The translations under genes were made by a program, and so were the position numbers. Shown in pieces: positions 1 through 47,461 of a stretch of 64,000 bases of DNA (positions are counted from its first letter, which is position 1; each line of letters starts with the position of its first letter). Origin of the DNA: a phage; the sequence record PZ583741.1. One strand, given 5' to 3'. The notes beneath the pieces were generated by a model. It saw nothing but the letters and a program-made list of their open reading frames with translations, searched no databases and was not told the DNA's origin.

Positions 1-371
1 GCGGTGTGCTCGCATCGGCCAATGATGAGCAGTCACTGGCAATGATGGCCATGCAACGCAGGGATGGCTGGCTTGATTATCTGGTTGGTTCTTTCGTTGA
101 GCGTTTAATTTCGTTTGGCATTGTGGATAAGGCTCCAGCCGCTGGATATTATTGCAAGTGGAATGACCTGCTTGAGCCGACGCAGAACGACAAGGCTGAG
201 TTGATTGTTAAACTCGCTCAGGCTGCGCAAAGTGCGGCAAATGCTGGTGTCGGTCAAATCCTTACAGATGATGAAATCAGGGGATTCCTTGGGCTTGAGC
301 CTATAGAAATGCCTGATGGATACAGGGAAGACACACCACCTGAAGACGAAAATGAAGATACTCCGGTTTAA
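1..371 (+). CDS. portal protein, C-terminal segment (5' end not in window at this copy; continues ORF 46232..47403 if the unit is circular)
   Basis: ORF in frame with the portal ORF at 46232; bases 1..127 identical to 47277..47403; followed by MuF-like gene. Confidence 0.7.
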
Positions 372-1302
372 CGCCAGGCTTCCGCAACCGCGCATATCGC
401 AGAGCCTGACAGACCCGTTAGGTGCTGCAACTCGCCTGTCGAAGATGGACAAAGTGATAACGCACAAATACAAGCAACTCAGGACTCGTGCGCTTGAGTT
501 GTTTCGCACTATCCCAAACAGCCAGGCTAACGCAGAATCAAGCGGTCTGTATTTCTACGATTTCAGCAGTCAGCGCGCCGCTGCATTCATGGATGAGCTA
601 CAGGCGCTGATTGACGAGATTCTGCTGGAAGGTGATGATTTCGGTCACGGAAGGATGTGGGCTAACGTGTTCATCGGTGATGCGTATCAGTCTGGGACGC
701 AAAAGGCTAACTCAGAACTATCAAGCCTGTCTCCGGTTTATGCTGAACGGCGACCGATTGCTGCGATACTCTACAGCGAGCCTTACCTTAATCGCCTGCA
801 ACTGGCATACACATCCGGATACTCAGACTGGCGCGGATTGAGTGATTATTCCCGTCAGCAACTGGCATCTGTCATTATGGAAGGCATTGCCCGGGGTGCT
901 AATCCTCGTGATGTTGAATCTGATATCGTTAAGCGTGTCGATGTGTCTCACAGCTACGCGAAACAGATAGCGCAGACTGAAATCACCGGAACGCTACGAC
1001 AGGCTCACAGGAGGGAAGTCATTGAGGCGCGCGAGGAATTGGGTATTGAGACGGTGATGCTGTGGCAATCGGCATTAATGCGCACAACGCGCCAGACTCA
1101 CGCGGCGAGACACGGACGGTTTTATACACCAGAAGAGATTGATACGTTCTATAGCGAAGTTGCTAATCGCAGGAATTGTCACTGCGCTCAAACCCCGGCG
1201 TTATTAATGGATGGAAAACCAGTCATTCTTGAGTCATCACAGGAAAGGCTTGATAAGCAACGCGAGGCGTGGCAATCAGTCAACAAAAAGCCCTCTAAGT
1301 GA
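316..1302 (+). CDS. head morphogenesis protein, MuF / SPP1 gp7-like (start uncertain: 316, 352 or 445)
   Basis: [12 protein letters not shown] motif resembling MuF ARTET block; position directly after portal. Confidence 0.65.
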
Positions 1303-1318
1303 GGGCTTGGTTTTATCT
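1286..1318 (+). terminator. putative rho-independent terminator
   Basis: hairpin agccctctaagtgagggct followed by T-rich tract. Confidence 0.4.
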
Positions 1319-1385
1319 TATTAGCATGCACAGAACAAATATTATTATCGCATAGCACAATATCTCTACGATGCTGAATATTGTT

Positions 1386-1970
1386 TTAATCATCCAGTTT
1401 CACGCCGGGAATCTTGCCTGCTGCGATGGCTTCATAAATTAGCTTGGCCTCACCCTCGCGCTTGTAATCTTGAGCTACCATTTCTAATACCGCGCAGATA
1501 GATTCAAGTACAGCCTCATGCTTCCTTTCTGATTCTGTGCGGAGTGGGCGGAACTGCGGTTTGTCGATGATGATATCCTTTGCTATTTCCGTGCCCTGCT
1601 CTACGCCGAGTATTTTAGTTATTCCATAAATAACAACCAGTTGGTCTGACGCATATTTAATTGTTACCGGATACCACTCACCGTTGTTGTCGCGATACTC
1701 ACACTCACACCCCACTGGCGGTAGGCCCTCTCCGTTCCATGCGGGCTTTTGCGATGCTGCTAGTGCGGATTCGTATTGGTCCTTGCTAATTTCAATGTCA
1801 TTATCTTCCACTTCAGAATCCATCTCAATGCACCATTCTGACAGACAATCACCATTGGCATCAATGAAGTACAGCGTGGTGTTGCTGCATAAAAAACCAG
1901 CCTCCACCGCACCATCAGGCCGCCCACCACGCTTAGGCAATTCTTGAACTAACAGGTCGATAAGTTTCAT
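1386..1970 (-). CDS. hypothetical protein
   Basis: 194-aa ORF, ATG with GGAGAA RBS. Confidence 0.55.
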   Translation of the reverse strand: MKLIDLLVQELPKRGGRPDGAVEAGFLCSNTTLYFIDANGDCLSEWCIEMDSEVEDNDIEISKDQYESALAASQKPAWNGEGLPPVGCECEYRDNNGEWYPVTIKYASDQLVVIYGITKILGVEQGTEIAKDIIIDKPQFRPLRTESERKHEAVLESICAVLEMVAQDYKREGEAKLIYEAIAAGKIPGVKLDD

Positions 1971-2191
1971 TTTGTTTCTCCATCAAAAAGGATTTCTTTG
2001 TATTCATCACTAACTTCATATGCTTTATTTAGCTCAAATACCTCATAGTGGTTTTGACCACCTTCTCGCCATGAGTGTTTGTCATTTAGTTTTGCGGCAA
2101 CAGCGTCGGCTTCATGCTTGTGTGGATAAATAGCAACGACATTTGATGAGACGCCGCATTCGATACAACCAACATTAAACACAAGCCACAT
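1967..2191 (-). CDS. hypothetical protein
   Basis: 74-aa ORF, AGGAGAA RBS, overlaps downstream gene start by 4 nt. Confidence 0.5.
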   Translation of the reverse strand: MWLVFNVGCIECGVSSNVVAIYPHKHEADAVAAKLNDKHSWREGGQNHYEVFELNKAYEVSDEYKEILFDGETK

Positions 2192-2201
2192 AATTATTCT
2201 C

Positions 2202-45120: not shown

Positions 45121-45139
45121 GCTTACCGGAGATATCACT

Positions 45140-45346
45140 ATGCGCAGCTATGCAGGATTTACACAGGAGGAAAAAGAACAGGTTTATTCACTGGCGCGGG
45201 CTGGCGTGCCTGATGAGGTGATTTGCTGTCGGTATGATATCGACGAGGACTTCCTGCTGCGTGTTATTGATGACGTTTTCGTTAACCTGCAAGAGAAGCG
45301 AGGATATAAGGGTATCTGCTGCAAGAATGATTTTTTGAGAGGGTGA
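45140..45346 (+). CDS. hypothetical protein
   Basis: ATG at 45140 with GGAG RBS. Confidence 0.45.
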   Translation: MRSYAGFTQEEKEQVYSLARAGVPDEVICCRYDIDEDFLLRVIDDVFVNLQEKRGYKGICCKNDFLRG

Positions 45347-45508
45347 TGTGGTGATTATTGAAAAAACAAATGAATGCCACAGTCTGTATATAAATACAGA
45401 ACTAGTCATCAATTTAAGGCAATGTGACGACTGGGTTCAGCTTGACAAACACCAAGCCGCGCAACTAATCGAAGTCCTGCAACGCTGGGTTAATGGTGAG
45501 GAGATTGA

Positions 45509-45718
45509 ATGATGAGCGTTTATTTTTATTGCGGTCACATTGAGCGACAAGGAAGCGTAGCGAGCGTTGGTAGTTTCTGCGGATTATCAATTGGACCTGA
45601 TGCTGTTAGCGCATATGAAGATGTCATGAGAGCGCAGGTGAAGGAAATCCAGTCAATCACTGAGAGCGGCGCTTTTAATCTTTCTGTTATTTTTGATAAA
45701 TTCGAAAAGGTGGAGTGA
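45509..45718 (+). CDS. hypothetical protein
   Basis: 69-aa ORF. Confidence 0.45.
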   Translation: MMSVYFYCGHIERQGSVASVGSFCGLSIGPDAVSAYEDVMRAQVKEIQSITESGAFNLSVIFDKFEKVE

Positions 45719-46194
45719 TGATTGATTGGGTATCTTTATTTGATTATGATGGAGCGTCTTTGGTGTGGAAGCATGGAAGGGGAGGTGTTTCCGTTGGCAG
45801 CATTGCGGGAACGGTTAATGCTGGCGGGTACATTCAGCTCAAAGTTAACGGAAGATTTTATTATGCCCACAGAATTATATGGGAAATGCATAACGGTCCT
45901 ATACCGGAAGGTATGGAGATTGACCACATAAATCATAACAAGGCGGACAACAGGATTGAGAATTTGCGTCTTGTTCGACACAAAACTAACACTAAAAACG
46001 CGCCTAAATACAAAAATAACACCAGCGGCGTTACTGGTGTGAGTTGGTATAAGAGAGATAAAAAATGGCTAGCACAAATAATGGTTGATGGCAATTACAT
46101 ACGTCTTGGTCTTTTTGATAATTTCGAAGCAGCAGTCGACGTGAGAAAGGAAGCAGAACTAAGGTATGGATTTCACAAGAACCACGGCGCTTGA
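45718..46194 (+). CDS. HNH homing endonuclease with AP2 domain
   Basis: HRIIWEMHNGPIPEGMEIDHINH...DNRIENLRLV; C-terminal GFHKNHG. Confidence 0.85.
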   Translation: MIDWVSLFDYDGASLVWKHGRGGVSVGSIAGTVNAGGYIQLKVNGRFYYAHRIIWEMHNGPIPEGMEIDHINHNKADNRIENLRLVRHKTNTKNAPKYKNNTSGVTGVSWYKRDKKWLAQIMVDGNYIRLGLFDNFEAAVDVRKEAELRYGFHKNHGA

Positions 46195-46231
46195 TGATAT
46201 AATGACCCTTGCAGAAATGTGAGGGTTTTTT

Positions 46232-47461
46232 ATGAGCGACAAAATCGCAGTATTGAATGCGTACATCAAGGATAGAGTATCTAACAACAATAGAATGATT
46301 CAGCAACAGCGCATATGCCACGCCGGGAAAAATTTAGATCAGAAGCGCGCTTTTATGTGGAGGGAGATGGGATACCCACAAGAAATTAACGCTGAGGATT
46401 TCAGATTTGCATATGAGCGTTACCCACTGGCAAACGCCGCAGTAAATATCGTTCTTAACAAGTCGTGGCATGGTATGCCTACAGTGCTTGAGGATGGCGC
46501 TGATGATGAAGCCACTTCCCCATGGGAAAAGAGCGTCAATGACATTCTGAAGAAGGCGCTACCATTCATCAAGGATGCAGATAAGCGGAATCTGATTAAC
46601 CGATACTCTGCGCTAATACTGCAAATCCGTGATGGGCGCAAGTGGAGTGAGCCTGTAGACATCACAAAAACCCGCCGAATTAAAGATAAATCCATCGTTC
46701 GCTTTATTCCGGTGTGGGAAGAGCAACTCCGTGTCAGCGCATGGAATAACGACGAAACCAGCGAAGACTACGGAATGCCTGAGATGTACGAATATCAGGA
46801 AAGCGCCGTAGAGGATTTCGACAGCGACGGAAAACCTGAGCGTTCCGTGCAGATTCACCCAGACCGCATCATCATTCTGGCTGAGGGTAGCTTTGACGGC
46901 AGCATGTTCAGTGGCGTTCCATTGCTACGCGCTGGTTTTAACTCATTAATAGATTGTGCCAAGGTGTCCGGAAGTTCTGCTGAGGGGTTACTCAAAAACT
47001 CATCTCGCCAGCTTAATGTTTCGTTCAATAAAGATAATGTTTCAGCGCAATCACTGGCACAGCAGATGCAAGTTCCAGTGGATGATTTGGCAGACCTGTT
47101 GAACGAAAACATCGAAATGCTCAACTCAGGCATTGATGCAGCAATGTTCAGCTTTGGCAGTGATGTTAGCGTTCTTTCAACATCCATGAGCGACCCTGAG
47201 CCGTTTATGTATGTTGCTGCCAGTCAGTTCGCGGCATCAGTGAATATCCCGCTTAACTCATTACTTGGAAGTCGCAGCGGTGTGCTCGCATCGGCCAATG
47301 ATGAGCAGTCACTGGCAATGATGGCCATGCAACGCAGGGATGGCTGGCTTGATTATCTGGTTGGTTCTTTCGTTGAGCGTTTAATTTCGTTTGGCATTGT
47401 GGAAAGCATGCCGGAAGCAACCTCAAAAGGTATCGCCGACTTCCTGGCTACATGTTACTAA
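46232..47461 (+). CDS. portal protein, N-terminal ~390 codons (last 19 codons after 47403 differ from the copy at window start)
   Basis: follows terminase; 47277..47403 identical to 1..127. Confidence 0.7.
47277..47403 (+). repeat. 127-bp exact direct repeat of window positions 1..127
   Basis: base-by-base comparison. Confidence 0.95.

Follow-up and report, generated by a model that had tools for sequence, protein, structure and literature searches.

Gene content of the window

The analysed stretch of phage DNA (64,000 nt, referred to as the window) carries the genes of two phages one behind the other. The first, here called phage A, occupies 1..47276 on the plus strand and is the genome unit of a siphovirus of the Segz_1/HC6/swi2 type of Salmonella and E. 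coli, as judged from its collinearity with Segz_1 and HC6. A domain search of phage A identified a portal protein, a Mu-F-like head protein, an endolysin, a decoration protein, a major tail protein and a tape measure protein. It also carries a tail tip protein, a tailspike and TerL, and a structural protein of the capsid module matches the annotated coat protein of Segz_1.

The second part (47404..64000, plus strand), called phage B, appears to be the start of a contig from a T1-like phage and is nearest to Escherichia phage vB_Ec-G8 (G8). It is collinear with positions 25903..41824 of that genome, with a coverage of 93% and an identity of 94.3%. Its visible length is 16.6 kb, and the end of the window cuts its tape measure gene. 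An early region of small genes and a tRNA-Arg gene are present together with the genes for TerS (51226..51732), an HNH protein (51801..52313), TerL (ending at 53877), the portal protein (54324..55562), a protein of the prohead protease type (55617..56717), the major capsid protein (57363..58304) and further head and tail proteins; the domains found are GP3_package (in TerS), Phage_portal_3, DUF2213 and Major_capside. The original prediction had placed another set of packaging, head and tail genes after 47403, and we indeed located it from TerS to the major capsid gene at 51226..58304.

We searched the window for the motif AATAGCACGAATTGCTAAA, tolerating up to three mismatches, and found seven sites with at most one mismatch each, all on the plus strand between 47702 and 53891 (0.02 expected); there is no such site in 1..47403. 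The earlier statement that the two parts use different promoter motifs therefore holds at least for the phage B part. GC content is 45.9% in phage A and 44.9% in phage B, and tetranucleotide correlations among 8-kb chunks range from 0.66 to 0.93. As both are enterobacterial phages, composition fails to separate the two parts cleanly, and it was not used as evidence.

A 127-bp repeat and the portal gene of phage A

In a self-comparison of the 64-kb window, positions 1..127 match positions 47277..47403 at 127 of 127 bases, in agreement with the original prediction, and identity breaks abruptly one base further on, where position 128 is T and position 47404 is A. This pair is the sole exact repeat of at least 30 bp in the window; the odds of an exact 127-mer arising by chance are negligible. 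Both copies lie in plus orientation: the first opens at window base 1, within the portal gene, and the second would form the end of the phage A contig.

Read linearly, the portal gene is split. Its 5′ part (46232..47403, plus strand) comprises codons 1 to ∼391 and continues after circularisation at 128..371 (plus strand), which holds the last 80 codons and the stop codon. The joined ORF had been estimated at ∼471 aa; it is 471 aa long, matches the portal protein of Segz_1 (470 aa) from one end to the other and spans positions 7–356 of the 357 positions of the Pfam profile Phage_portal_3 (residues 61–425). The circular join lies at about residue 391, within this domain. The linear reading cuts the domain short and turns the gene into a 409-aa chimeric ORF (46232..47461), whereas closure of the circle restores its full length.

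Probable circular closure of phage A

Nucleotide alignment of 1..47276 to Salmonella phage Segz_1 describes one full circular turn, in which window position 47276 corresponds to Segz_1 45994 and window position 1 to the adjacent base 45995. The same full-turn collinearity was observed with Escherichia phage HC6. Single HSPs cross the inferred circular join in Segz_1 (2273 bp), HC6 (2546 bp) and the IMG/VR contig L003 (1448 bp, reaching the end of the fetched stretch), and a 32-mer over the join was found verbatim in IMGVR_UViG_2974773671_000001. The alignments of Segz_1 and L003 to the linear sequence halt exactly at 47403, and none of the three join-spanning relatives (Segz_1, HC6 and the IMG/VR contig) runs beyond this position. 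We detected no other large repeat or duplication within the phage A part. Together with the full turn on Segz_1 this bears out the complete and non-redundant gene set that had been proposed for 1..47276: when one repeat copy is removed and the circle is closed, an intact, non-redundant genome syntenic with its relatives results.

Exact direct terminal repeats of 100 to 300 bp occur in some phages. The 127 bp could accordingly be a genuine T7-type direct terminal repeat and 1..47403 the true linear virion DNA, in which case the portal gene would be complete only upon circularisation or concatemer formation. As in T7-type genomes, a genome-length unit carries a perfect direct repeat of comparable size at each end. 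The location of the copies differs from what this type would lead one to expect, namely ends outside essential coding sequence: here the ends would interrupt the essential portal gene near codon 391, within its Phage_portal_3 domain. The length of the repeat is that of an assembler parameter, being exactly the maximum k of SPAdes, and overlaps of this kind are documented artefacts (PMC5923482, PMC8104045). Moreover, the related siphovirus STGO-35-1 is reported to use headful packaging with terminal redundancy and permutation and to have no fixed short repeat (PMC8954984), the records of relatives start elsewhere and read straight through the site, and the TerL of phage A is of the Terminase_3 type. 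We consider a genuine terminal repeat highly improbable.

The junction at 47403/47404

At 47403..47404 the homology to Segz_1 and L003 stops and that to G8 starts; we take this position to be an artificial junction between two records. G8 homology begins exactly at 47404, which corresponds to G8 25903, and amounts to 99.2% identity over 1.6 kb. The bases preceding the join differ (..TTGTGGA in the window versus ..GCGGTACG in G8), and G8 extends upstream of 25903 with sequence that is missing from the window. The second repeat copy ends precisely at this switch of homology, the record ends being placed by comparison with the relatives. Between the phage A and phage B parts there is no nucleotide similarity, as A gives no match to G8 and B none to Segz_1, and the junction itself shows zero microhomology, no spacer and no Ns.

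The join cuts a gene on each side, the portal gene of phage A and an EcG8_037-like gene of phage B. The latter is represented by a 3′ fragment at 47404..47461 (plus strand) with the last 18 codons and the stop codon, matching G8 25903..25960 in the CDS 25772..25960. The last 18 residues of the chimeric ORF are identical to the C-terminus of the vB_Ec-G8 protein EcG8_037; the stretch is therefore the 3′ terminus of a second-phage gene rather than random sequence. The original prediction had counted 19 unrelated codons past 47403: the number is correct, but the codons are the 3′ end of the EcG8_037-like gene, which is in frame with the portal gene by chance.

We looked for the junction and its flanks in several collections. 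A 40-mer over the linear junction gave no match in IMG/VR, the first 41 bases of the phage B part gave none in IMG/VR, metagenome contigs or GTDB genomes, and neither metagenome contigs nor GTDB genomes matched the final 45 bases of the repeat. No match to a 1-kb query over the junction was obtained among complete E. coli genomes, and exact-protein look-ups for the chimeric ORF, the TerL of phage A and the portal protein of phage B were likewise unmatched. As the source contigs are absent from the searched collections, the record boundary is deduced from the comparison with relatives.

If the junction were real, phage B DNA would have been joined to phage A at 47403/47404 in a recombinant or co-integrate, with duplication of a 127-bp portal fragment. 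Only the unbroken run of the supplied sequence speaks for this. Such an event would have truncated one gene in each phage, in A that of the portal protein, at a site with neither homology nor microhomology, and the duplication would have had to start exactly at window base 1 and to measure exactly 127 bp. With genomes of 45.5 to 48.3 kb among the relatives, one continuous molecule of 64 kb or more would be larger than the genome of either lineage. In addition, the linear junction is missing in IMG/VR and the flanks are missing in the metagenome, GTDB and E. coli collections. A co-integrate is thus exceedingly improbable in our view, and a real tandem or recombinant arrangement is very unlikely. 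Even the two biological readings taken together, that is, a true Segz_1-like linear virion DNA with a portal-internal 127-bp repeat at 1..47403 or a real inter-family co-integrate at 47403/47404, remain very improbable.

Origin of the repeat and of the junction

The window is almost certainly an artefact and not biology: as far as can be judged from the sequence, the k-mer overlap of a circular contig was retained and two records were joined end to end. The original prediction of a two-phage composite, with a circular contig carrying a k=127 overlap followed by a second contig, is supported by the circular collinearity of phage A and by the exact switch of homology at 47403/47404.

The first record (1..47403) would be a short-read contig that closes into a circle and represents a ∼47.3-kb siphovirus related to Segz_1 and HC6. 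When a de Bruijn assembler follows a circular path through its graph, the final k bases are written out a second time, which would give the contig identical 127-base ends; 127 is the largest k-mer of SPAdes. The true unit of phage A would then be 47,276 bp long and the start of the contig arbitrary, inside the portal gene. Assemblies of headful-packaged, permuted genomes close into circles. The second record would begin at 47404 as an unrelated T1-like contig near vB_Ec-G8, with an equally arbitrary start inside a small gene, and records from one sample or file would have been joined without a spacer, so that the 47403/47404 junction would correspond to no molecule. We infer the identity of the assembler and the step of concatenation; in principle, the length of 127 could be a coincidence.

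The correspondence of the repeat length with a de Bruijn k-mer, already pointed out in the original prediction, has published counterparts. End overlaps of 127 bp in SPAdes contigs were described as an artefact that needs trimming (PMC5923482), and 127-bp terminal repeats were trimmed off a SPAdes phage contig (PMC8104045); an overlap of 55 bp was also reported for SPAdes (PMC10353447). In PMC9022550 the digits 127 form part of a genome length. With the 127-bp SPAdes overlaps the window shares an exact direct repeat of k-sized length, which would lie at both extremes of a genome-length contig. Removal of one copy and closure restore an intact gene and the full synteny with relatives. We found no sequence feature that sets the window apart from them.

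A related possibility, which would still make the junction an artefact, is that a single assembler or scaffolder linked the circular path of phage A to the path of phage B in one contig. A and B do follow each other directly, with no spacer between them, and enterobacterial phages of both kinds are isolated from sewage, so that one shared sample is plausible. However, a de Bruijn link needs a common (k-1)-mer, and the two parts have no similarity and zero microhomology at the join. Scaffolders insert Ns, but no N is present anywhere in the 64-kb window. Furthermore, the start of the window coincides exactly with that of the overlap, just as a self-complete phage A record would predict. Such a mis-join within one program is very improbable, and we favour the end-to-end joining of two finished records.

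Under end-to-end joining, the importance of the locus would be limited to data hygiene. The window should be handled as two independent genomes, with one copy of the 127-mer trimmed to give a genome length of 47,276 bp for phage A. The 409-aa ORF at 46232..47461 should never be annotated, and the adjacency of genes or motifs over 47403/47404 carries no meaning. Tiling of concatenated multi-record files will keep yielding such pseudo-junctions, for which a repeat of 127 bp, or of another assembler k, that starts from record base 1 is a cheap flag.

Relationship to known phages

Both phages are new variants of well-sampled siphovirus groups of E. coli and Salmonella, and neither is remarkable. 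All around the circle, the genes of phage A are arranged as in Segz_1 (Segzyvirus) and the Escherichia phages HC6, swi2 and VSt472. Over the aligned parts its nucleotide identity to this group is about 88 to 89%, and it shares with Segz_1 an intein-containing TerL. In contrast, only ∼66% of phage A could be aligned by blastn to either Segz_1 or HC6. The alignment takes in 31,259 bp of the 47,276 bp, with 87.8% identity. The overall similarity is thus ∼58% by this rough blastn estimate, which is not a VIRIDIC value, and lies below the usual genus line for Segzyvirus of ∼70% nucleotide similarity to the type species over the whole genome. Phage A further differs from Segz_1 in its tape measure protein (791 aa versus 1097 aa), in an extra HNH gene (45715..46194) and in its blocks of small genes.

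Phage B shares its early region with vB_Ec-G8, and its TerS, TerL, portal, head and tail genes follow one another as they do there. Its identity to SU57, FP, Veterinaerplatzvirus T145P1, ACG-M12 and Rtp is 84 to 92%, and the next-closest matches after G8 include Veterinaerplatzvirus records (Drexlerviridae, Braunvirinae). Over the 16.6 kb assessed, collinearity with members of this group and a structural module of the T1 type place phage B in Drexlerviridae/Braunvirinae. The gene for an HNH endonuclease that separates TerS from TerL in phage B is missing in G8; in Rtp, an HNH gene is annotated beside the small terminase gene.

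Circular closure of the first 47,276 bp

The first 127 bases of the window recur at 47277..47403 with every base the same, and the repeat finder also returned this pair, with the first copy opening at window base 1. The identity stops one base further on (T at 128, A at 47404). Exact repeats of at least 30 bp are otherwise missing from the 64-kb window; an exact 127-mer cannot have arisen by chance. In order of coordinates, we refer to the phage before the join at 47403/47404 as phage A (part A) and to the one behind it as phage B (part B).

Local blastn of part A (1..47276) against the complete record of Salmonella phage Segz_1 gave exactly one turn: base 1 corresponds to Segz_1 45995, the alignment continues to the record end, picks up at 855 and arrives at 45994 with base 47276. 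Because of this one-turn alignment, the last base before the second repeat copy and the first base of the first copy are neighbours in Segz_1, as would be expected if the unit measures 47,276 bp and the 127-mer is really single-copy. A circularised junction (46001..47276 followed by 1..2500) gave a single HSP each with Segz_1 (2273 bp, 89% identity), Escherichia phage HC6 (2546 bp, 78% identity) and the IMG/VR contig IMGVR_UViG_2974773671_000001 (1448 bp, 92% identity, to the end of the fetched stretch). With the linear sequence 46001..49000, the alignments to Segz_1 and to the IMG/VR contig both end precisely at 47403. A 32-mer over the circular join occurs verbatim in this contig; a 40-mer over the linear join had no match in IMG/VR.

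The original prediction had rested on the exact repeat and on a portal ORF of ~471 aa obtained by joining, and both were confirmed: 46232..47403 plus 128..371 encodes 471 aa, matches the Segz_1 portal (470 aa) over its full length and covers positions 7 to 356 of 357 of the Pfam Phage_portal_3 profile. The join lies at residue ~391 within this domain. If the repeat were a genuine 127-bp DTR of phage A, the virion ends would fall within the portal domain, and its length would equal an assembler constant only by coincidence.

The junction at 47403/47404

Similarity to Escherichia phage vB_Ec-G8 (G8) opens precisely at 47404 (G8 25903); the first 1.6 kb are 99.2% identical. Position 25903 falls within the small G8 gene EcG8_037 (CDS 25772..25960), and 47405..47461 holds 18 codons and a stop, the peptide being identical to the EcG8_037 C-terminus. 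The codons after 47403, previously taken for 19 unrelated ones, are therefore the 3' end of a gene of phage B whose reading frame coincides by chance with that of the truncated portal. Directly before the join the bases are quite different (..GCGGTACG in G8, ..TTGTGGA in the window), and comparison of the window with the upstream G8 sequence showed zero bases of microhomology. No similarity between part A and part B (47404..64000), nor any match of part A to G8 or of part B to Segz_1, was detected by local blastn; composition does not tell the two parts apart. Searches of IMG/VR, the JGI metagenomes, the GTDB genomes, complete E. coli genomes and the gene-position index did not recover the source contigs, so the position of the boundary is inferred and does not come from a record header.

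A real co-integrate molecule of phages A and B would have two truncated genes and a size of at least 64 kb, compared with 45 to 48 kb in both lineages, and a recombination signature is absent. If a de Bruijn mis-join had linked the two phages, it would have required a common (k-1)-mer, and none exists between them; a scaffolder would have left Ns, of which the window contains none. Taken together, mis-join, genuine DTR and co-integrate are very improbable.

The simplest account is the overlap of a circular contig followed by concatenation. This had also been the leading reading of the original prediction (a circular contig with overlap, then an unrelated contig), and it is supported by the one-turn closure on Segz_1 and the homology switch at 47403/47404. 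The first record would be a de Bruijn contig closing in a circle, its final k = 127 bases repeating the opening 127 and its start point having fallen within the portal gene by chance. The second would come from the same sample or file and be the beginning of another contig, with an arbitrary and also intragenic start point, set end to end with the first without a spacer. The repeat and the junction are an artefact of assembly and concatenation and no biological structure. Headful-packaged, terminally redundant, permuted genomes would be expected to assemble into circles. The authors of the phage U136B genome removed "terminal repeats of 127 bp" from its SPAdes contig (PMC8104045), and another study trimmed a SPAdes overlap of 55 bp (PMC10353447). 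For the related siphovirus STGO-35-1 (47,483 bp, 46.5% GC), whose tailspike is ~93% identical to that of Segz_1, headful packaging, terminal redundancy and partial permutation were reported (PMC8954984).

Gene content of phage A

Megablast against GenBank phages placed 40000..47403 in a group of Salmonella and Escherichia siphoviruses with Segz_1 (genus Segzyvirus) as top match; for 128..25000 the top matches were Escherichia phages HC6, 6947 and HC8A, Salmonella virus VSt472 and phage swi2. A rough blastn measure gives an overall similarity to Segz_1 or HC6 of roughly 58%, which makes phage A a divergent, mosaic relative.

The prediction of a complete, non-redundant gene set is supported, with one copy per expected module: portal and Mu-F-like head protein (the latter 316..1302), endolysin (3138..3578), a PHROG 760 protein (8842..10332), head decoration protein (10332..10802), a PHROG 771 virion structural protein (10802..11875) collinear with the annotated Segz_1 coat protein, major tail protein (17538..18257), tape measure (19964..22339, + strand), tail tip protein (24880..27366), tailspike (27406..29673), a leftward replication/recombination block collinear with the SSB, recombination, helicase and primase genes of Segz_1, and TerL (42272..44806, + strand). 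The tape measure has 791 aa as in HC6 (25370..27745), whereas the Segz_1 homologue has 1097 aa; judged from these lengths, the phage A tail would be shorter than that of Segz_1, and the difference shows mosaicism inside the Segz_1/HC6 group. The C-terminal part of the tailspike (~27778..29750) has no nucleotide similarity to Segz_1 or HC6.

The phage A TerL (844 aa) contains an intein of ~363 aa that splits the Walker A P-loop (borders ...VFGGRG/C92LAIG... and ...TVTHN454/SGKTRT...), with a Hint domain at residues 92-176 and a LAGLIDADG homing endonuclease at 309-375; the Terminase_3 and Terminase_3C domains lie at 454-829. TerL has 840 aa in Segz_1 but 474 aa and no intein in HC6, so the intein is patchy across this group. 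Between TerL and portal lies an HNH endonuclease ORF (45715..46194, + strand; PHROG 99, E = 4e-67), probably a free-standing homing endonuclease. At that site Segz_1 lacks a counterpart; the only match, of 69%, is to Segz_8, elsewhere and on the opposite strand. A GC-rich hairpin, AAGCCCCG-N4-GGGGCTT, flanked by A/T runs on either side, was located by the repeat finder in three copies (4902..4929, 18257..18284 and 22338..22365) at boundaries of gene blocks. These are probably bidirectional intrinsic terminators.

Gene content and promoter-like motif of phage B

The sequence 47404..64000 is T1-like. G8 is its top match, ahead of SU57, FP, Veterinaerplatzvirus T145P1, ACG-M12 and Rtp, and these matches assign it to the Drexlerviridae, Braunvirinae. 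Part B is collinear with G8 up to G8 41824 (93% coverage, 94.3% identity), and the window end cuts it within the tape-measure gene; similarity to G8 is ~88% over the visible 16.6 kb. Both phages are ordinary new variants of groups that are already well sampled.

Phage B carries its own module of TerS (GP3_package), HNH endonuclease, TerL, portal, DUF2213 head protein and major capsid. The HNH_3 endonuclease gene (51801..52313, + strand) sits between TerS and TerL and is absent from its nearest relative G8, where the alignment has a gap at ~51735..52347; in Rtp, an HNH endonuclease gene (rtp20) is annotated beside the small terminase gene. Mechanical calling starts the TerL ORF at 52198, overlapping the HNH_3 gene, so the true start is probably near 52350. 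The sole tRNA in the window, a tRNA-Arg with anticodon TCT (50839..50916, + strand), belongs to the phage B early region, whereas tRNA-Ile is annotated in some relatives of both phages.

Different promoter motifs had been noted for the second module, and this is supported: AATAGCACGAATTGCTAAA occurs seven times in part B, always on the + strand (47702, 47966, 48422, 48860, 49035, 49916 and 53873), and never in part A; 0.02 copies would be expected by chance. The repeat finder aligned five of the copies, and in these a TATAGT/TATAAT-like hexamer follows ~17 nt on; around three copies conservation reaches up to 75 nt. From its sequence, the element looks like a conserved sigma-70-like promoter of the phage B early region, with TTGCTA as -35 and an upstream element.
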